DNA from: Candidatus Saccharimonadales bacterium
GTDB taxonomy: Bacteria; Patescibacteriota; Saccharimonadia; Saccharimonadales; DATKHC01
Assembly: GCA_038317055.1 (NCBI GenBank)
Contig: JBBQBA010000002.1
Location: forward strand, 182,967 to 246,966
Direction: 5' to 3'
Length of the DNA stretch: 64,000 bases
The translations under genes and the position numbers were made by a program. Each line of letters begins with the position of its first letter. The first letter of the stretch is position 1. Of the stretch, positions 425 through 17,557 are shown one piece after another. The notes below the pieces were generated by a model that was not told the DNA's origin, made no database searches, and was given only the letters and a program-made list of their open reading frames with translations.

Positions 425-2011
425 ATGGTAAGTATCAGTGAAAACCCTTTTTTATTTGAATCTATTGAGGATAAAGAAGATCTAAATATCGATCTTTCAA
501 CTAGGGAAGTAGTAAGCCAGGAATTAGTTGCTGTAGTAGGCGTTGTCGCTGTTGGAGTAGATAATATATCTAATTCATCACATAATCACGTAATTAATAA
601 TAGATTAAAAGTAAGTAGAATTATGAAAGGTTCTGAAGGAATAGATTCATTAAGATTTTATCTTAACGACATAGGGGAATACCCCCTTCCAACCAAAGAA
701 GATAATAACTCTTTTGCGTTTGCAATGAGGCTTGGTCTCGCTGCTAAAACTGAACTTGAATCTTTATCTCTACGAACCTCCGATAAAAAAAGAGAAGCTT
801 TAGAAATGCAAGTTCTACTAGGTGAAGAAAATAGAGATTTATTTATTAAATCTAATTTAAGACTAGTGGTGTCTTGGGCACAAAAATATTTTAGCAAAGG
901 CAAATCTTTAGAACTCTTGGATTTAATACAGGAAGGTTATTTTGGATTAGAAAAAGCTGTTGATAAATTTGATCCTGACAAGGGTTTCGCATTTAGTACA
1001 TATGCTTCTTGGTGGATTAGACAGTCTTTAGAACGCGGAATAGATAATTCTGGGTATATTATAAGAATTCCTGGTGAACGTTCTAGGCTTGTTTATGCAG
1101 TCGAACAAATTGAATTCAGATTAGAAGATTCTGGTTTAACAACTCAGAGCTTAACAGAAATCGATGAGTATATAGCTGCAGAACTTTCAGACGATATAAA
1201 TCTGGTAACAATACAAGACGTTAAAGATCTAAGAGCAGATAAAGTTACTCAACGTACTATTTCGTCAAATAAAAATTTTACAGGAATAGATGATTCAGCC
1301 GAACTACAAGATACTATTAGCGATTTTTCTAGTGATCAAGAATATACGGAAATAGAATCTAAACTAGATATGGAAAACTTACTTGCAGAATGGAGAACGC
1401 TACTAGATAAGGACGAGTATCTTCTACTAACAAGAAGGATGGGATTAAAAGAAGAAGATGTTATATCTCCATCAAATGACTTATTGGAAAAACTTCTCCT
1501 TAGAACACAATCAAACCGAAATACCCTAACAAGAGCAATTATGAAAGTCGAAAGAAATCCTGTTTTCAAAGAACTTATTAAACAATGTTATTTATTTGAT
1601 GACGAACAAACTTATTTCGATGTATATTTTATGGGTAGGTACCCGACATTTACTGATCTTACTGAATTAATAGGAAGTAAAAATAAAAAAGACGTAAATG
1701 AATATTATGATAAAGTAGCGACTCATGTGATTGGAATATTACACGACCGGTTTGGAAGTGATCAAATAGAATTAGCTGTAAGAAAAGTTTATGAAGAAAA
1801 TCACAATAGTCCAAGTACGAAAAGAGTAAGAACACCTGACATGCTGTTAAATATTATGTTAAATCGTTTTGGTTTACCGAATAATTTAGGAGATATATCA
1901 TTGTTAAATATTAGAAGTGCCGTGAACGATACTAGATATGCTGGCTATGTAGAAACGAAAGTATTATCACTTTTACTTAATCTTAAAGATGATTATTTAA
2001 TTGGGCGATAA
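425..2011 (+). CDS. Sigma-70 family RNA polymerase sigma factor (RpoD-like) with a divergent region 4 and a C-terminal extension
   Basis: Region 1.2-like DSLRFYLNDIGEYPLP. Region 2 LDLIQEGYFGLEKAVDKFDPDKGFAFSTYASWWIRQ and region 3 IRIPGERSRLVYAVEQ are present. AAGGAG at 409-414 lies 10 nt before ATG 425, so the ORF-track start at 368 is probably too early. About 150 aa follow the last recognisable sigma region. Confidence 0.8.
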   Translation: MVSISENPFLFESIEDKEDLNIDLSTREVVSQELVAVVGVVAVGVDNISNSSHNHVINNRLKVSRIMKGSEGIDSLRFYLNDIGEYPLPTKEDNNSFAFAMRLGLAAKTELESLSLRTSDKKREALEMQVLLGEENRDLFIKSNLRLVVSWAQKYFSKGKSLELLDLIQEGYFGLEKAVDKFDPDKGFAFSTYASWWIRQSLERGIDNSGYIIRIPGERSRLVYAVEQIEFRLEDSGLTTQSLTEIDEYIAAELSDDINLVTIQDVKDLRADKVTQRTISSNKNFTGIDDSAELQDTISDFSSDQEYTEIESKLDMENLLAEWRTLLDKDEYLLLTRRMGLKEEDVISPSNDLLEKLLLRTQSNRNTLTRAIMKVERNPVFKELIKQCYLFDDEQTYFDVYFMGRYPTFTDLTELIGSKNKKDVNEYYDKVATHVIGILHDRFGSDQIELAVRKVYEENHNSPSTKRVRTPDMLLNIMLNRFGLPNNLGDISLLNIRSAVNDTRYAGYVETKVLSLLLNLKDDYLIGR

Positions 2012-2995
2012 ATAATATAATAATTTTCCATTACTTCCATCATGAGTAATTGTATTTGCTTCCATCTCACCATTTCCAGTAGTCTTATCAATATTTGCTG
2101 AATTACCATAAATGAAAGTAGGTTTAGAGCCACCACTAATAACTATCTCAACATGGCCACCATTATAGTCAAAATATCCTACATCACCTGGCTTAGCTAT
2201 GTAATTATCGGTAGCTAAATGTTTTGTAAATCCCATATACTGAATATTATTGGCATCGTTTTCGTCCCAGCCATTTGATTCACCTTTAATAAATGGGTAT
2301 CCTGATTGTTTATATATATAGCTAACAAAATCAGCACACCATTCTTCGTATGAGGCTCCATTAGTGTAGGTATTAAGTAAATTCTCATGACTAGAGTTTG
2401 TTGATTTCCAAGCAATCCATTGTTTAGCTGTGTTACATGCTATAACATTACCCTTTGAACCTGAACATTGATCATTTTTAAACGAACTAGTCGGATTCCA
2501 TCCAGCTTGTGCTGTAGTGAGATAATTGCAAGAACCCAACGATAATTGGGATTCTAATTTTGTCTTATTGGACAATAAACAAAGTTGAGTATAAGGATTA
2601 AAGTATCCTCCATTTTTAAGTAGCCATACCTGTTCAGGAAGATTATTGCAAGTTGATAGAACTGCCTTCAGATTGTTGTCGTTTACTGTTAAACAATACT
2701 TTGAGTCGTGAACTATATTGAATTCATTTATATTCCAAACTTGTGCGGAGGAATCATTACATTTCCAGTTATATACCTCAGTATTATTTGCTGTTTTATC
2801 ATTATGTACGTCCATACAGTAACCATTAATACCAGACCTAATACTCGGTCCGTCTGCAGCTGCATGATTTCCAACAAATCGAACTATAGACACAGTGCTT
2901 ATTATTAAAAGTAAAATTATAATGAAAGTACTGTGCGTAAAACCAGACTGACCTAAATTTAATAAACGTTTTCTGTAAAAGTATCTTTTAATCAT
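1997..2995 (-). CDS. Secreted or membrane-anchored ricin-B lectin + CHAP domain protein (putative peptidoglycan amidase/endopeptidase)
   Basis: N-terminal TM segment FTHSTFIIILLLIISTV. QxW lectin motifs AQVWNI, EQVWLL and AQAGWNP. C-terminal CHAP signature with Cys in EEWCADFVSYIY and His in NGGHVEIVIS. Confidence 0.65.
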   Translation of the reverse strand: MIKRYFYRKRLLNLGQSGFTHSTFIIILLLIISTVSIVRFVGNHAAADGPSIRSGINGYCMDVHNDKTANNTEVYNWKCNDSSAQVWNINEFNIVHDSKYCLTVNDNNLKAVLSTCNNLPEQVWLLKNGGYFNPYTQLCLLSNKTKLESQLSLGSCNYLTTAQAGWNPTSSFKNDQCSGSKGNVIACNTAKQWIAWKSTNSSHENLLNTYTNGASYEEWCADFVSYIYKQSGYPFIKGESNGWDENDANNIQYMGFTKHLATDNYIAKPGDVGYFDYNGGHVEIVISGGSKPTFIYGNSANIDKTTGNGEMEANTITHDGSNGKLLYYLSPN

Positions 2996-5200: not shown

Positions 5201-7093
5201 TTAGATTGAATTACGATGTCTTCGTGCAACGATTTGAGCACCTATGAGTGAAGCTAGAGCTAAAGTAACAATTGAGATTTCTATCATATTGTTTTTTGAT
5301 GTACTCTTTATCGATGAGGGAACAGTGATAAGATCATTTCCTACATTTGACAGATGAGAGTGATTAATAAATGATGCAAGGTTTACTGAGCTTGAGCCAG
5401 AAGATCCGGGTTGAGTACTATTAGAAGTATTTACGAATGAAGTTTTAACATTTGAACTAGTCTTAGGTAAATAATTCATAATTGGGTTAGCAGGATTAGT
5501 TGAGCTGAGCGTATTACTAGGGTCTCCAGTAGTACTTGCGCTGTTTGCAAAGTCAAGAGCTGATCCTAAACTACCGTTCCATTGTCCATATACATTAATA
5601 AACAGTATACCGAACCATCCTGAAAGATTTAGGTTGCTATTAGTTAAGTTAGCTAGACTTACATCAGTGGTTGCATTTCCGGATGTAGCATTTCCTGCAG
5701 TTGTATTGTTTGTTACCGCTGCATCACCACTTTTTGCGTTAACTTTTATATTATTATTTATCGTATCTAAAGTTGTGTTATTTAGTGTTGCAGTATTAGA
5801 GAGGTTATTTGTAACATTTTGATTGACGCCACTAGCCAATAATGCCGAAGTACTTCCCGATGGTGCGTTCATTATTAGTCCTACCCATTTACCAAGAACA
5901 TTTACAAACACTAGCAGACTATTTGCTGCTACGACTTGTTTACCGGTTAGGTTTAGTAAAGTTACATTAGTGTTAGCAGCGCCAGTTGTAGCGCTACCTG
6001 CGGTCGTGTTGTTGCCGACTGCAGCAGTACCTGATTGCGCATTTGAAAGGATATTGTTATTAATTGCTGTTGTATCAGTGTTATTCGCTATAAGACTATT
6101 ACTTATATTCGTAGAGTTCGTATTATTTGAGCCAACATTAGTATTAAGAATTTCGGGTAATAATATATTTCCAGTTAAGTCTCCATAAATATTTATTTCA
6201 CCGATAAATGATTGGCTAGAATTAATTGCTGAATTAATCAAGTTTACTACGTCCGCTACAGCTGTAGCTGAACCTGTTGTAGCGTTACCCCCAGTTGTAT
6301 TAGAATCTACGTTTGCATTCCCACTCTGAGCGTTTAAGACAATATTGTTATTAAGTGTGTTGTTATTACCATTATTTATAGTGATATTGTTAGCTACAGT
6401 GTTATTTACATTATTTAATGAGCTAGGGTTTATTAATAAATCGCCATTAACACTACCATTTAGATTAGCAACGAAAGTAGATAAACCAGATCCATTAAGA
6501 CCACTTGAGGACTGTAAAAGGTTGATTACACCAGCGGTTGATTGAGCATTACCGGTTGTTGCATTGCCCGCGGTAGTATTACCGGTCACAGATGAATTAC
6601 CAGTTGTTGCATTTGAATTAATGCCATTATTTACTGTAGCGTTATTATAACCACTAAAGAATCCGTCATTTGTAACTTGGCCTGTACCAGTTGAACTTGA
6701 GCTTGGTCCAGCCGCAGGGACCACTGCTTGGGTTGAGGGAACTATAATTTTAGGTTTAATTGAACTTTTCAACACATAGGTGTTAGTGTCAGGGTTATAT
6801 ACGTATAAGTTTGAATCCCATCTGCCTGTAAGATTGTTATATGAATAATCTCCCGGAGAAACTGGTGAAGTGATTCCGGTCTTTGGATTCCAAGTATATA
6901 ATCCATTCACCCAGTTACCTGTGGCTACGTCAAAAGTATATGAAGGGTCTGGAGGTGTAGTAGCAGCTTTAGAAGTGTTATTGCTAGGTTGTGGTGCAGC
7001 AAATGCAGGTACTGCAGTAGATCCAAACATTGTAAGCATAATAAGAACTAAAAGGCTTTGTTTAAAAACTCGGAATATTTTAACGTTTTTCAA
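5201..7093 (-). CDS. Secreted N/S/T-rich repeat surface protein with C-terminal TM anchor (paralogue of the 9041..10702 gene)
   Basis: TTG start at 7093 with GGAGGG 7 nt upstream. Signal peptide MKNVKIFRVFKQSLLVLIMLTMFGSTAVPAFA. Four repeat units carry an NTTAGNATTG/SGNA core. Blocks INIYGDLTGNILLP, LLVFVNVLGKWVGLIMNAPSGS and LSGWFGILFINVYGQWNGSLG follow the repeat cores in the same order as in the 9041 gene. C-terminal TM plus ARRHRNSI tail. Confidence 0.7.
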   Translation of the reverse strand: MKNVKIFRVFKQSLLVLIMLTMFGSTAVPAFAAPQPSNNTSKAATTPPDPSYTFDVATGNWVNGLYTWNPKTGITSPVSPGDYSYNNLTGRWDSNLYVYNPDTNTYVLKSSIKPKIIVPSTQAVVPAAGPSSSSTGTGQVTNDGFFSGYNNATVNNGINSNATTGNSSVTGNTTAGNATTGNAQSTAGVINLLQSSSGLNGSGLSTFVANLNGSVNGDLLINPSSLNNVNNTVANNITINNGNNNTLNNNIVLNAQSGNANVDSNTTGGNATTGSATAVADVVNLINSAINSSQSFIGEINIYGDLTGNILLPEILNTNVGSNNTNSTNISNSLIANNTDTTAINNNILSNAQSGTAAVGNNTTAGSATTGAANTNVTLLNLTGKQVVAANSLLVFVNVLGKWVGLIMNAPSGSTSALLASGVNQNVTNNLSNTATLNNTTLDTINNNIKVNAKSGDAAVTNNTTAGNATSGNATTDVSLANLTNSNLNLSGWFGILFINVYGQWNGSLGSALDFANSASTTGDPSNTLSSTNPANPIMNYLPKTSSNVKTSFVNTSNSTQPGSSGSSSVNLASFINHSHLSNVGNDLITVPSSIKSTSKNNMIEISIVTLALASLIGAQIVARRHRNSI

Positions 7094-7135
7094 GATAACC
7101 CTCCTAGGTCTTAGTTGTTTATATTGGTTTTCGAG

Positions 7136-7162
7136 GGCCCTGTTAGGCGAACCTTTAGGGCC
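7136..7162. promoter_or_regulatory. GC-rich hairpin (GGCCCT-15 nt-AGGGCC) between repeat-protein genes
   Basis: A 6-bp G/C stem in an otherwise AT-rich spacer. It lies about 45 nt upstream of the TTG start of the 5201..7093 gene and downstream of the 7206..7805 stop. No U-run follows on either strand. Confidence 0.3.
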
Positions 7163-7205
7163 ACTCGTTTAACCATTTACTTACTTAACTATTAACTAAT
7201 AAATA

Positions 7206-7805
7206 TTAGTTAGTAACAGTGTAAGTTACTGAAGTATTGCTAGAGTTTGTTGCATTACCGCTAGTAGCTGAGCCACCAGTTGTATTTTCTGAAACACTTG
7301 CATTTCCAGTTGAAGCGTTCTGACTATTGCTAGTATTAACGTTCAAGTTATTGTTGTTATTAACTTCTACTTTGTTGCTAACTTTTGTAATAACTTTGTT
7401 TGTTGATTCTGGACCAGTTTCAGTTATTGAACCTGCACCGGAACTTGTTGGGTCACTGCTCATTGACCATCCACCTGAACCTGCACCTGAGTTGTCAACT
7501 GAGATAACTGCAGAAGTGCTGCTGTTATTAGTTGCTGCACCAGTAGTAGCACCGCCACCAGTAGTGTTTTCGTGACTAGAAGCGTTTCCAGTTGAAGCCC
7601 ACTGTGGGTTTGTACTATTGAAGTTTAGGTTGTTATTATTATTTGTTCTCCAACAAGAACTGCTGTGAAAGACAACTACGTTGTGAGACTCAGGTCCTGT
7701 GTTAGTTATTGTTGATGATCCGGTAGCTCCAACAACTCCACCAGTCATGCCTGCGACTAGGCCTAGTGATGTTACTAGAGATGCCCCTGTTTTGAGTAAG
7801 TTCAT
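7206..7805 (-). CDS. Secreted N/S/T-rich repeat protein (short paralogue)
   Basis: Signal peptide MNLLKTGASLVTSLGLVAGMTGGVVGATG. Two copies of N..N.STGNAS..ENTTGG.AT.G.ATN.S.TS. RBS AGGAGG upstream. Confidence 0.6.
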   Translation of the reverse strand: MNLLKTGASLVTSLGLVAGMTGGVVGATGSSTITNTGPESHNVVVFHSSSCWRTNNNNNLNFNSTNPQWASTGNASSHENTTGGGATTGAATNNSSTSAVISVDNSGAGSGGWSMSSDPTSSGAGSITETGPESTNKVITKVSNKVEVNNNNNLNVNTSNSQNASTGNASVSENTTGGSATSGNATNSSNTSVTYTVTN

Positions 7806-7836
7806 ACATACCCTCCTAATTATTTAAATATTGATT

Positions 7837-7852
7837 TTGGGCGATCGCCCAA
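7837..7852. promoter_or_regulatory. Perfect 16-bp palindrome TTGGGCGATCGCCCAA upstream of the 7206..7805 gene
   Basis: Read directly from the sequence. It lies about 30 nt upstream of the AGGAGG RBS of the 7206..7805 gene and just downstream of the 7903..8388 stop. Confidence 0.4.
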
Positions 7853-7902
7853 TATCATAAAACCTAGCAAGATTTAATGATATTGACTGACCGATTATTT
7901 GC

Positions 7903-8388
7903 CTAGTTGTTAACCTCCTCAGTGCTCGACTGGGTATTAATATGCAAGCTTTGGGTTGAGGTACCATGTGAAGTAGTTGAAGATGACTGTGAATTATCAA
8001 TAGATATATTTACGTGAGATCCATTACCACCATCAACGCTTTTAGATACGGAACCATTTTCAGGTACCGGTATTTGTTGACCGTTAACAGTTACATTTGT
8101 AGTAGTTGATGCTGAGGCTGATGATCCAGATGGGTCTGGTATTGTAGTCTGACTAATATCAGGGATTACATTCTTATTTATACTTACTAGACCTGGGAAG
8201 GATCCATCGTATAATGATGAGGTAGCTGTGTTGTCTTTTATGACTTCACCACTGCGACCAATTCCAATCAGATAAATAAATGATAAGAACATAATGACGA
8301 TCAATGAGATTATAATTGCAATATTTCTAGAAAAGGGAGAATACTCATTCAAACTTTTCATTGCCAACCCTATACTGTTTATGTTCAT
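7903..8388 (-). CDS. Membrane-anchored Ser/Thr-rich protein
   Basis: N-terminal TM IAIIISLIVIMFLSFIYLIGI followed by a low-complexity S/T/N-rich ectodomain. First gene of the co-directional repeat-protein trio. Confidence 0.5.
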   Translation of the reverse strand: MNINSIGLAMKSLNEYSPFSRNIAIIISLIVIMFLSFIYLIGIGRSGEVIKDNTATSSLYDGSFPGLVSINKNVIPDISQTTIPDPSGSSASASTTTNVTVNGQQIPVPENGSVSKSVDGGNGSHVNISIDNSQSSSTTSHGTSTQSLHINTQSSTEEVNN

Positions 8389-9040
8389 TTGACCCTCCTC
8401 ACGAAATTAACTTTTCACGCTCAAATCCCATATTACATTATATGGATATAAACGCAAATATATGTAAGAATTATTGCAATTTTCTTAACATTAAATAACA
8501 GATTATGCTCTTGAGATAATGAATGATGTCAATATTACTTAATATTATTAACTAAACATAAGCATTTTGAATGAACAAACAACAAACTTGTTTCACGCTT
8601 TTGTTTATAAAATTGGTAATTTAAAGCATAATCACTTTTATTTAAAATACCTAGATAGCAGGTTATGTTGCCTGACTTTTTTTAAAATAATTAAAATATT
8701 AATATTTTTGTTCTGCAAAAATTAATAACTTTTTGTTTACTTTTGATTTATGGATAATTAATTATAAATTACTCAATATACAATTTTTAAATTATTACAA
8801 CGTTCAGATATTAACAACGATACAGACGTGAAAATGCTTGATATTTAATCCAATGGAGCTAGTAAAAATAAACTCGATTATATTGATATTGAACACTAAA
8901 TTTATAGTCATAAATTTATTACATAATTAGCCTTGACTTACAAATTAGGGGTTATACAGTAAGGGTATTAATAGGGGTTACGTATCTGTTAATTTAGCTA
9001 TAAAAATCATGACTAAATTACAAGAAGAAAACATTTAATT

Positions 9041-10702
9041 ATGAGATTGTATAAATCACTACTTATTATTAGCGCTGTTACGGGAGGCCTGTGGTTAGGT
9101 TCATCTATTCTTGGATCTACAGCTTATGCATCTACTGATACAGGTAATCTAGCAACTGATCAATCTTCTTCTCAAACAGACAACAACCCAATAAGTAACT
9201 CTAAGGTGACGACAGCTAACATACCACCCTCAACAATTCCCGTAAATAACACTATTGCTACTTTGCCAACAACAGATGCAACTATAAATAACTCAACACA
9301 GTCTAATGCTCTATCTTCTGATGCATCCGTAACCAGTAACACAACAGCAGGTGACGCAACTAGTGGTACCGCAAATGATACATCCAACACACTAAATTCA
9401 GTTAACTCTGCAACAAGTTTAAGTGGTGGAGGGATTAAGACATTTACTCAAGATATAAACGGATCTCACAACGGTGATCTGAACATTGATCCTGGTACTG
9501 TTGCACAATCATTACAAAGTCAGAATGCAGTTGCATCTACGACAAATTCTTCCGGCACTATTAATAATAATATTGACCTTGGAGCTCTAAGTGGAAACGC
9601 GAGTGTTTTAAGCAATACAACTGCGGGGAATGCAACTAGTGGTGATGCGGTTACTGAAGCAAATCTTATTAATCTTATAAATTCCGGAATCACCGATAAT
9701 AATGCGTTTCTAGGTGTAATAAATATTTATGGGGACCTAAACGGTAACATAGTATTACCCAGCAATTTAATAGATTCACTTTCCAACAACCAGAGTTCAT
9801 CTAGCAGTAATCCAACAAGCTTGACTACTGCTACAGTAAACAATAATCAAGAAGTTAATAATAATGTTAACCTTTTAGCTAAATCGGGTGACGCTAGAGT
9901 AAATAACAACACAACTGCGGGGAATGCAACTAGTGGAAATGCTTCAACTGCAGTAAATATATATAATCTGCTAAACAGCCAAATAGTAGGCGGAAATTTG
10001 TTGCTGGTTTTTGTAAATGTTTCTGGAACATGGTTTGGTCTACTTCTAAATGCACCAGCCGGGTCTACGTCAACGGCAATTGGGAGTAATATTCAACAAA
10101 GTTCAATTATTCCAAATTCTCAAACAAACATAAACAACAAAGCTTTGATTAATAACAATATTAATTTAAATTCAGTTTCTGGTAATGCGTTAGTATCTAA
10201 AAATACTACCGCGGGTAATGCAACAAGTGGTAATGCTTCTGCAATAGTGAATATTGCTAACATTCTTGGTGATCAAATCAATTTAACCGGCTGGTTGGGA
10301 ATTCTAATTATAAATGTATTTGGATCATGGAACGGCAGTTTAATTCTTCAACCTATAGCTAATACTGCAGTAGTTCTAAACCAGCCAATAAATACATACA
10401 CTAGTACGAGTATCACAACAATTAGTTATGAAACCGTAGTGACCTACTTCAATCACACTTACCACTCATTTTATGCAAATACGAACTATCCAGATACAAA
10501 CCAATCAACTACACCACCATCTAATAATGATAGCCAAGCCAAAAATTACCATGGATTAAGTAATTTTGCCAGTATTATTTCTCCAACCAGTCATATAAAC
10601 AAAAACAATGATATTGGTACTAAAGTTGCTGTCTTTGGTATAGTATTTGCCGGCATATTAATTGCATGTGAGAGAATATTCGCTTTAATTATTCGCCCAT
10701 AG
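9041..10702 (+). CDS. Secreted N/S/T-rich repeat surface protein with C-terminal TM anchor (paralogue of the 5201..7093 gene)
   Basis: Signal peptide MRLYKSLLIISAVTGGLWLGSSILGSTAYA. Four repeats with an NTTAGNATSG(N/D)A core. Blocks INIYGDLNGNIVLP, LLLVFVNVSGTWFGLLLNAPAGS and LTGWLGILIINVFGSWNGSL follow the repeat cores. C-terminal TM VAVFGIVFAGILIAC. Confidence 0.7.
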   Translation: MRLYKSLLIISAVTGGLWLGSSILGSTAYASTDTGNLATDQSSSQTDNNPISNSKVTTANIPPSTIPVNNTIATLPTTDATINNSTQSNALSSDASVTSNTTAGDATSGTANDTSNTLNSVNSATSLSGGGIKTFTQDINGSHNGDLNIDPGTVAQSLQSQNAVASTTNSSGTINNNIDLGALSGNASVLSNTTAGNATSGDAVTEANLINLINSGITDNNAFLGVINIYGDLNGNIVLPSNLIDSLSNNQSSSSSNPTSLTTATVNNNQEVNNNVNLLAKSGDARVNNNTTAGNATSGNASTAVNIYNLLNSQIVGGNLLLVFVNVSGTWFGLLLNAPAGSTSTAIGSNIQQSSIIPNSQTNINNKALINNNINLNSVSGNALVSKNTTAGNATSGNASAIVNIANILGDQINLTGWLGILIINVFGSWNGSLILQPIANTAVVLNQPINTYTSTSITTISYETVVTYFNHTYHSFYANTNYPDTNQSTTPPSNNDSQAKNYHGLSNFASIISPTSHINKNNDIGTKVAVFGIVFAGILIACERIFALIIRP

Positions 10703-16936: not shown

Positions 16937-17557
16937 ATGCATAGATTAAATAAAAAAGGATTTACAATAGTTGAGGTAATGATTGTACTAGCGATCGCTA
17001 CGCTTCTTTTGGTTATAGTTCTTATTGCGGTTCCAGCTCTTCAAAGAAACTCTCGAAATACCGAAAAAAAACACGATGTTAATGATTTAATTGGAGGTAT
17101 AGTTGACTATAGTTCGACAAATGGTTATTTACCTTATGGATTTTGTACTACAGGTTTAGCCGATGATCCAATAATATTTGTTAGACCAAGTATAGCAACA
17201 GATATACCTATATCAGTAAAATTAGGTTTTTTCAATCAAACTACTGAACACAATGGATCTGTTAATGGAAGTGGTGGCTGTAGTTCAATTTGGCCCGGAG
17301 GAACTTCTGGATTAGTAAGTTTAAAAGAAGTCCATTTATTAACTACTGTTCCCCAATTGTTTCCAGGCGGTCCTGCAGGAACTAATGATCATCTTGCTAT
17401 ATTTATGGACGCTACATGTACTGGTAGCATACCATCGAATCAAGATACTACATTTCCCACTTTAAAAATTATTAATACTGCTCCAGGTCAATTTGCTATT
17501 GCTTATTTAATTGAGACAGGTCAAGGTAAATATGTAGCGCAATGTACTGATGGTTGA
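16937..17557 (+). CDS. Type IV pilin (prepilin-type N-terminal cleavage/methylation domain)
   Basis: KKGFTIVEVMIVLAIATLLLVIVL matches the G-F-T-L-I-E class III signal peptide. Cys pair near the C-terminus. Confidence 0.7.
   Translation: MHRLNKKGFTIVEVMIVLAIATLLLVIVLIAVPALQRNSRNTEKKHDVNDLIGGIVDYSSTNGYLPYGFCTTGLADDPIIFVRPSIATDIPISVKLGFFNQTTEHNGSVNGSGGCSSIWPGGTSGLVSLKEVHLLTTVPQLFPGGPAGTNDHLAIFMDATCTGSIPSNQDTTFPTLKIINTAPGQFAIAYLIETGQGKYVAQCTDG

Follow-up and report, generated by a model that had tools for sequence, protein, structure and literature searches.

What kind of structure is specified by a run of adjoining genes whose products are predicted to be secreted or membrane-anchored and consist mostly of Asn, Ser, Thr and Gly is the question raised by positions 5201 to 10702 of the window analysed here, a 64-kb stretch of contig JBBQBA010000002.1 from a Candidatus Saccharimonadales bacterium. 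A preliminary description, made from the letters alone, had placed three genes on the minus strand (7903..8388, 7206..7805 and 5201..7093) and a divergent one on the plus strand (9041..10702), and had taken their products for four paralogues built from one module. The four open reading frames (ORFs) were confirmed at these positions and strands, and their products, of 161, 199, 630 and 553 amino acids (aa), are named here D161, C199, LARGE-A and LARGE-B, respectively. The predominance of Asn, Ser, Thr and Gly was also verified for all four, these residues making up 50.5% of LARGE-A, 48.8% of LARGE-B, 62.3% of C199 and 46.0% of D161, with charged residues representing 6.5–10.6%. Paralogy held for three of them but not for D161, since the hidden Markov model (HMM) of the module matched only 9041-10702, 5201-7093 and 7206-7805 in the 64 kb and left 7903-8388 unmatched. 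The analyses revealed that the three minus-strand genes compose a conserved cassette, and on balance we lean towards the view that it encodes an envelope surface assembly specific to Saccharibacteria (class Saccharimonadia), in which an anchored LARGE protein and a secreted C protein would co-assemble in the company of a membrane D protein.

The conservation of the cassette was established by calling ORFs in 80 distinct related loci and classifying them with HMMs for LARGE and for the C199 (C) and D161 (D) families. In all but one of the 76 loci with room for it (75 of 76), a C-type gene was found directly upstream of the LARGE gene in the same orientation, at a median gap of 113 bp, and a D-type gene preceded the C-type gene in 59 of 74 loci, the median gap being 111 bp. 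A co-directional D, C, LARGE cassette forms the conserved unit and runs, in the window, from 8388 down to 5201 on the minus strand. Neighbours beyond this unit were not conserved, the commonest being a Crp-type regulator (22/80 loci) and a sortase together with a GT2 glycosyltransferase (17/80). A second LARGE gene was not observed nearby in any of the other loci. LARGE-A and LARGE-B are not mutual nearest relatives: the former groups with cassettes whose C partner presents a TGP(D/E)SxN motif, and the latter with a second subtype (e.g., loci L001 and L004) in which the C partner does not carry it. This grouping identifies LARGE-B as the orphan of an anciently diverged subtype, whose own C and D partners were lost or never existed.

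The family is already deposited in public databases as hypothetical proteins and corresponds, in kind, to the anchored surface repeat proteins of Gram-positive style; its novelty lies in the module itself, in a head fixed at four repeats, in the conserved D-C-LARGE cassette and in the variety of anchors described below. The search with LARGE-B recovered at least 1,484 homologues among 8,000 scored candidates, typically 550–730 aa in length and, where a source gives them a name, recorded as Candidatus Saccharimonadales "hypothetical" or "beta strand repeat-containing" proteins. Relatives were present in 434 genomes when one genome per GTDB species was scanned, and the 80 loci listed were almost all labelled Saccharibacteria, Saccharimonadales or Patescibacteria. 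Moreover, a 51-column profile restricted to the module retrieved 691 proteins at E ≤ 1e-3 from 1.84 billion cluster representatives, and the best 150 of these had 425–751 aa, 143 of them with exactly four matched stretches. The small number of matches and the fixed copy number indicate a narrow lineage-specific family rather than an expandable adhesin repeat array. The earlier impression that the module belongs to no named family was borne out: the four window proteins had no match near any cut-off in Pfam-A or NCBIfam, the best E-value of any family matched by more than one of 74 family members scanned singly was 0.09, the PDB sequence-profile search with the LARGE family returned 0 matches, and literature searches yielded no description of the family.

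LARGE-A (5201..7093, minus strand), the four-module anchored protein of a complete type-1 cassette, was recognized by its ORF, by a family HMM score of 573 bits and by its four cores. It begins with a predicted Sec signal peptide read from the sequence (aa 1-32; 6998..7093, minus strand), whose end lies between AVPAFA and AP. The only form found in the public protein collection has 612 aa (P0198) and starts at Met19; the TTG start at 7093, which gives a complete signal peptide with a basic n-region, looks the better one. The variable N-terminal region that follows contains twice the aromatic motif TGxW...(Y/W)x(W/Y)(N/D)P, located by regular expression at aa 58-70 and 89-101 (6791..6922, minus strand). 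Of 252 homologues, 107 have this motif, which is missing from LARGE-B; we take it to be similar to cell-wall-binding repeats, and no Pfam model matched it. Next come a four-repeat beta-rich core (5558..6652, minus strand, with repeats at 6386-6652, 6089-6373, 5798-6082 and 5558-5779), a low-complexity linker, or stalk, rich in Ser, Thr, Pro and Asn (5300..5557, minus strand) and, without any LPxTG motif, a C-terminal transmembrane (TM) helix with a basic tail, IVARRHRNSI (5204..5299, minus strand). LARGE-B (9041..10702, plus strand), the orphan type-2 paralogue, is likewise a four-module anchored protein, as judged from its ORF, its cores and its AlphaFold2 (AF2) model, and presents in order, on the plus strand, a signal peptide (9041-9130), four repeats (9266-9520, 9536-9805, 9827-10075 and 10121-10351), a linker (10352-10606) and a TM segment with its tail (10607-10699).

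In both large proteins, the core N-[TS]-T-[AG]-G-x-[AS]-T-[ST]-G-x-A occurs exactly four times, as the preliminary description had proposed, at aa 172, 265, 362 and 463 in LARGE-A and at aa 100, 192, 290 and 388 in LARGE-B. The two sequences share 47% identity over 371 aa (E = 7e-74), and each repeat of one finds its best match in the repeat of the same rank in the other, with diagonal scores of 183–233 and off-diagonal scores of 88–160. These values agree with the claim that repeat-specific hydrophobic blocks follow the same order in both paralogues, and they imply that the order of the four repeats and of their blocks predates the divergence of LARGE-A and LARGE-B. In fact, the blocks are kept family-wide, as INIYGNLNGNILLP, LLVFVNVLGxWVGxIxNAPAG and LSGWFGILFINVFGxWxGS.

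The topology of the two proteins is common to their family. Among 245 full-length LARGE homologues, an N-terminal hydrophobic segment corresponding to a signal peptide was found in 229, a C-terminal hydrophobic 17-mer in 230 and a basic tail after it in 224, and LPxTG occurred in two only. The N-terminal region varies from 20 to 533 aa, and the linker between the fourth repeat and the TM segment keeps to a narrow range of lengths (82–126 aa, median 94), with a wealth of Ser, Ala, Thr, Gly and Pro that would suit a wall-spanning stalk. A TM helix followed by a basic tail had been attributed to both large proteins; the hydrophobic helix is present in both (residues 523-551 in the AF2 model of LARGE-B), but the tail is clearly basic in LARGE-A (RRHRNSI) and weakly so in LARGE-B, with two Arg and one Glu. 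The window proteins carry no sorting motif and no sortase gene was found within the 64 kb; with their TM helix and basic tail, the prediction is that they stay in the membrane and are not linked to the wall.

The use of the same module with other anchors in related genomes also bears on its location. In about 20 related loci, proteins here called C' carry a single unit composed of a TGP motif and the module, with four conserved Cys, and behind it a Pro/Thr-rich linker, an LPxT[GSA] motif, a TM segment and a basic tail, and their genes usually adjoin sortase (PF04203) and GT2 (PF00535) genes. One of these proteins passed the curated LPXTG_anchor model TIGR01167 (17.2 bits against a cut-off of 15.9). 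The module was also found behind an N-terminal TM anchor and on free secreted proteins of 82–128 aa. That one module should be borne by several kinds of anchor is characteristic of an extracytoplasmic domain exposed at the surface and, together with the predicted topology, supports the view that the window genes encode secreted or TM-anchored proteins of surface type. Such relatives share with the LPxTG/sortase surface proteins of Gram-positive bacteria the logic of signal peptide, passenger, stalk and anchor, and those with the LPxT[GSA] motif, TM segment and basic tail also the sortase gene alongside, whereas the window proteins and 243 of the 245 LARGE homologues do not have the motif. Examples of C' genes are found at L015:7530-9950, L051:2149-4300 and L079:1816-4200, besides some 17 others, the window having no equivalent; with their sortase and GT2 neighbours, they are placed either directly upstream of the D-C-LARGE cassette or convergently downstream of it.

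Some observations on the spread of the module stand apart from the cassette. A profile of the TGP-plus-module unit retrieved only 12 small proteins from 477 candidates and gives little information on taxonomic range. One small protein, P0337 (L084:6001-6387), is a 128-aa single-module secreted protein whose gene adjoins a TrwB-like ATPase and transposases on a 1.9-Mb contig of 41–49% GC; this contig is probably too large for a Saccharibacterium, and the module may therefore occur outside the lineage. In L035 (337-1200), a signal peptidase I of the archaeal/SipW type (TIGR02228, 90.6 bits, the cut-off being 51.9) bears one module at its C-terminus, a fusion unique to this locus among the 80. 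Membership in the TasA/TapA/SipW-type fibre operons was rejected for the window cassette, as no Peptidase_M73 (TasA/camelysin) match was obtained with the window proteins or the 74 family members and no SipW-like gene exists in the window.

The fold of the repeats was approached by AF2 modelling of LARGE-B with a 74-sequence alignment, which resulted in a mean predicted local distance difference test score (pLDDT) of 70.6 and a predicted template modelling score (pTM) of 0.56. The preliminary description had allowed that structure prediction might show only disorder; the four repeat cores were instead modelled as all-beta with pLDDT values of 90–97. In each repeat, a strand of 15–18 residues leads to a tip with short bridges across the NTTAGNATSGNA core, which is followed by a strand of 11–13 residues and by one or two strands formed by the hydrophobic block. 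The N-terminal region (residues 25-73) and the linker at 452-523 were disordered and the C-terminus was helical. A pTM of this value in a chain about 40% disordered suggests a packing of the four repeats into a single rigid head. Foldseek searches with the model, directed at the beta-helix or beta-solenoid fold that had been suspected, revealed nothing significant in PDB, where the top match was the FapC amyloid (E = 0.64), or in BFVD. The prediction is beta-rich and its weak structural neighbours were beta-solenoid, beta-roll and "putative adhesin" proteins. The best of these neighbours (PDB 4qrk, SufB/SufD and autotransporter passengers) are all-beta, repeat-built and elongated, as this head is modelled to be, and they differ from it in that no PDB-chain or Pfam profile matched here and in that its strands are unusually long, with 13–18 residues as assigned by DSSP. 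As modelled, the fold would be beta-solenoid-like, with no close solved relative.

The second member of the cassette, C199 (7206..7805, minus strand), is a secreted short paralogue recognized by its ORF and by the module HMM, with two degenerate copies of the module. It consists of a signal-like N-terminal segment (7722-7805, minus strand), delimited in the alignment of the C family, and of two units of TGPESxN plus module (7485-7712 and 7209-7430, minus strand). In 67 sequences of the family, the unit, present twice per protein, follows the pattern I..TGPdS.N.v ... N.N.Q.A.(S/T)G.A.V..NTTGG.A.SG.A.N, and the conserved Asn and Gln positions recur in both units. The family does not have the hydrophobic blocks that back the hairpins of LARGE. 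AF2 modelling of C199 alone produced two long hairpins of weak confidence (pLDDT 59, pTM 0.36). The signal-like N-terminus of the C family, with the consensus K..R..AA...SLGL..G...G.AGA, is unusually conserved for a signal peptide, and this, judging from the alignment, may point to a dedicated peptidase that recognizes it or to its retention in the membrane. It bears some resemblance to SipW-type signal peptides, but the NCBIfam signal-peptide models gave no match to it, and no claim is made on this point.

The third member, D161 (7903..8388, minus strand), was defined by its ORF, by the module HMM, which it does not match, and by the alignment of its family. It is a bitopic membrane protein, with an N-in TM segment (8251-8322, minus strand), a Ser/Thr-rich spacer and the conserved motif VxVNGQxxPVPxNGSxxK...V (8002-8094, minus strand). 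The whole D family keeps this order: a short cytoplasmic N-terminus, one TM segment, a low-complexity spacer, the motif of about 30 residues and a Ser-rich tail. An assignment of a D-type protein to the SAG1386/EF1546 surface-associated family of NCBIfam was considered and judged meaningless (23.8 bits against a cut-off of 80).

From these elements, a mechanism can be proposed for the cassette. LARGE would be exported by means of its Sec signal peptide and held in the membrane by the C-terminal TM helix with its positively charged stop-transfer tail, and the stalk, about 94 residues long and composed largely of Ser, Ala, Thr, Gly and Pro, would keep a rigid all-beta head off the membrane. This head would be composed of four diverged and positionally fixed repeats, each a long hairpin with the tip A-x-[ST]-G-[ND]-A-x-V-x-x-N-x-x-[AG]-G-x-A-T-[ST]-G-x-A, packed on its own hydrophobic block. 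The C protein, secreted and almost uncharged, would offer two hairpin modules devoid of such blocks and might dock onto, or co-assemble with, the LARGE head through the shared module, with D as a probable bitopic membrane accessory protein. The architecture, its conservation, the synteny, the confident beta-rich core and the use of the module on several anchors are observations, and the co-assembly of C with LARGE, as well as a role as surface coat, fibril or adhesive layer, is inferred from them.

Several points weigh against this assembly. The orphan LARGE-B has no C or D partner within the 64 kb, which indicates that LARGE may work alone. Co-assembly of C with LARGE is suggested by the shared module and the tight synteny only, and the fold of C is uncertain given its low-confidence AF2 model. 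Promoter and terminator scans gave results at the level of shuffled sequences and are uninformative on an operon or co-transcription. Finally, the literature searched reports no member, and the available portion of a Southlakia transposon-sequencing (Tn-seq) and structure-annotation study does not mention the family.

The pairing of a long anchored protein with a short secreted paralogue invites comparison with known fibre systems. In Streptomyces, the chaplins ChpA-C are anchored and ChpD-H are secreted. In these proteins, multi-domain anchored and short secreted paralogues share one small module, are encoded by adjacent genes and are displayed on the surface of a Gram-positive-type envelope, and in these respects the cassette resembles them. 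On the other hand, there is no sequence relationship, Pfam, with its chaplin domain, having given no match; the module is here polar and Asn-rich, not hydrophobic; and the anchor is a C-terminal TM segment and not LPxTG, which appears on single-module versions in related genomes. Similarly, curli CsgA/CsgB and Pseudomonas FapC are built from imperfect repeats rich in Gly, Asn, Ser and Ala that form strand-turn-strand units, with nucleator and subunit encoded together, but the repeats are here much longer (about 95 aa in LARGE and 76 aa in C) and the envelope is monoderm, with no secretion machinery of the CsgG/E/F type. The closest functional analogy would be with the long anchored and short secreted chaplins or with CsgB/CsgA.

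Taken further, this analogy would make the anchored four-module LARGE a template nucleating open-ended, polar-zipper beta-solenoid fibrils of secreted C on the cell surface, a proposal that we regard as rather unlikely. It is consistent with the adjacency of the two paralogues in 75 of 76 loci, with the composition of C199 (62% Asn, Ser, Thr and Gly, 6.5% charged residues) and the conserved Asn and Gln repeated in both its units, with the want of the hydrophobic blocks in C and with the weak modelling of its monomer. Against it, a closed four-repeat head, kept in nearly all members, fits a defined domain better than an open template, the amyloid structural matches were not significant and no homology with CsgA was detected (hhalign probability of 4.3%, with a manually entered CsgA sequence as query). 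By the same comparison, identification as a curli repeat protein (S-x5-Q-x-G-x-G-N-x-A-x3-Q) was rejected. The most novel outcome, to which we give the same low likelihood, would be an extracellular fibre or coat specific to these ultrasmall epibionts: LARGE, kept beyond the wall on its stalk of fixed length, would seed the stacking of C into a functional-amyloid-like polymer that arose independently of curli, Fap, TasA and chaplins and might serve where the cell meets its host.

A comparably doubtful alternative is that the cassette encodes a host-attachment adhesin, in which the LARGE head or the variable N-terminal region would bind the host bacterium, with C and D as accessory proteins. 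Cultivated Saccharibacteria are obligate epibionts that rely on envelope-associated functions (PMC10633639), and the placement of the family in this group would suit such a role, as would the variation of the N-terminal region over 20–533 aa and the presence of the TGxW...YxWNP motif in part of the homologues. Nevertheless, 33 core columns are invariant among 74 sequences, in a family spread over hundreds of species presumably with different hosts, and such a core is unlike that of receptor-binding adhesins, which evolve fast. In addition, no lectin or binding domain was detected in the four window proteins or in the 74 family members.

Heavy N-glycosylation, as of a surface-layer (S-layer)-like glycoprotein with the overlapping N-x-S/T sequons of the cores as glycan sites, had been considered compatible with the repeats in the preliminary description. 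That the proteins are sequon-dense is literally true, but sequon numbers mostly follow composition: compared with residue shuffles, LARGE-A has 38 against 26.0 ± 4.1 (z = 2.9), LARGE-B 24 against 21.4 (z = 0.7), C199 12 against 10.9 (z = 0.4) and D161 4 against 4.3, so that an excess appears in only one of the three module proteins. The positions are not conserved either. In 74 homologues, the invariant residues are three Gly, the Ala after each G-(N/D) and the first Asn, whereas the Asn of N-A-T in the second repeat is Asn in 53, Ser in 13 and Asp in 8, the third "sequon" Asn is Ser in 26, Asn in 24 and Asp in 17, and only 44 sequences have Ser or Thr at the +2 position of N-T-T. Invariant Gly, Ala and first Asn beside an Asn that interchanges point to selection on turn and packing residues and not on acceptor sites. 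The richness in Asn, Ser, Thr, Gly and Ala looks structural, as would suit a solenoid-like beta fold with its ladders of polar residues and its tight turns.

What keeps a glycoprotein under consideration is the excess in LARGE-A and the GT2 gene near the cassette in 17 of the 80 related loci. This gene, however, usually lies beside the sortase and the LPxTG single-module gene, outside D-C-LARGE, and is not in the window; a scan of 20 neighbouring genes of the window revealed no oligosaccharyltransferase-like gene, and no SLH or other S-layer domain was found by Pfam and NCBIfam in the window proteins or in the 74 family members. N-glycosylation is in our judgement unsupported and a glycoprotein layer improbable, more so than either a fibre or an adhesin. 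Least credible of all is a Ca2+-dependent RTX-like beta-roll, folding only outside the cell with Ca2+ bound at its G-(N/D)-A turns, which the interchange of Asn and Asp at turn positions would allow, since the GGxGx(D/N) nonapeptide is present in none of the four proteins, the Gly spacing of the module is irregular (11 and 5 residues) and acidic residues are scarce; an RTX protein with tandem GGxGxDxUx repeats was rejected for lack of these nonapeptides.

As for the surroundings of the cassette, it is separated from LARGE-B by a non-coding spacer (8389..9040, not assigned to a strand). The preliminary description had called it a 650-bp AT-rich divergent promoter region, of which the size and composition stand (652 bp, 23.8% GC), but promoter-like sites were at chance level, 26 against a shuffle expectation of 28 ± 5.4. 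A search of the spacer revealed neither an ORF nor a decayed copy of C or D. Around these genes, the window is an ordinary stretch of chromosome, with genes for a sigma-70 factor, a Ricin-CHAP hydrolase, a K+ channel, a rhodanese (UPF0176), a PIG-L deacetylase, PBP2, an LCP protein, a pilin-like protein and ATP synthase; a 780-kb contig from the metagenome-assembled genome of a relative shows synteny with it, and Rfam and tRNA scans of the window gave no match. The hydrolase (1997-2995, minus strand) combines in one chain a Ricin-type lectin domain and a CHAP peptidoglycan amidase/peptidase domain and could be a secreted cell-wall hydrolase aimed at a glycan-bearing target, e.g., a host cell; the position of its gene is kept in the syntenic locus L001, where the Ricin lectin domain alone was recorded. 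A few kb from the cassette, a 206-aa protein (16937-17557, plus strand) is regarded as type IV pilin-like because of its prokaryotic N-terminal methylation motif.

Saccharibacteria are ultrasmall epibionts in which the envelope is the host interface and most surface proteins are unannotated. For this lineage, a lineage-wide three-gene cassette is now defined across 434 reference species genomes, together with a new module of about 50–76 aa used with a TM tail, with LPxTG and sortase, with an N-terminal TM segment or with no anchor. Whatever its role, the sequon pattern should not be taken as evidence of N-glycosylation. The evidence on the cassette does not yet demonstrate an unusual mechanism, and if C and LARGE do not co-assemble, the family would represent a well-conserved but ordinary structural surface protein. 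The cassette is nonetheless a target for the definition of a Pfam-style family, for surface identification by cryo-electron tomography and proteomics, and for genetics in transformable strains. If the long anchored and the short secreted proteins do co-assemble, Saccharibacteria would have independently invented the logic of chaplins and curli at the surface through which they meet their hosts.

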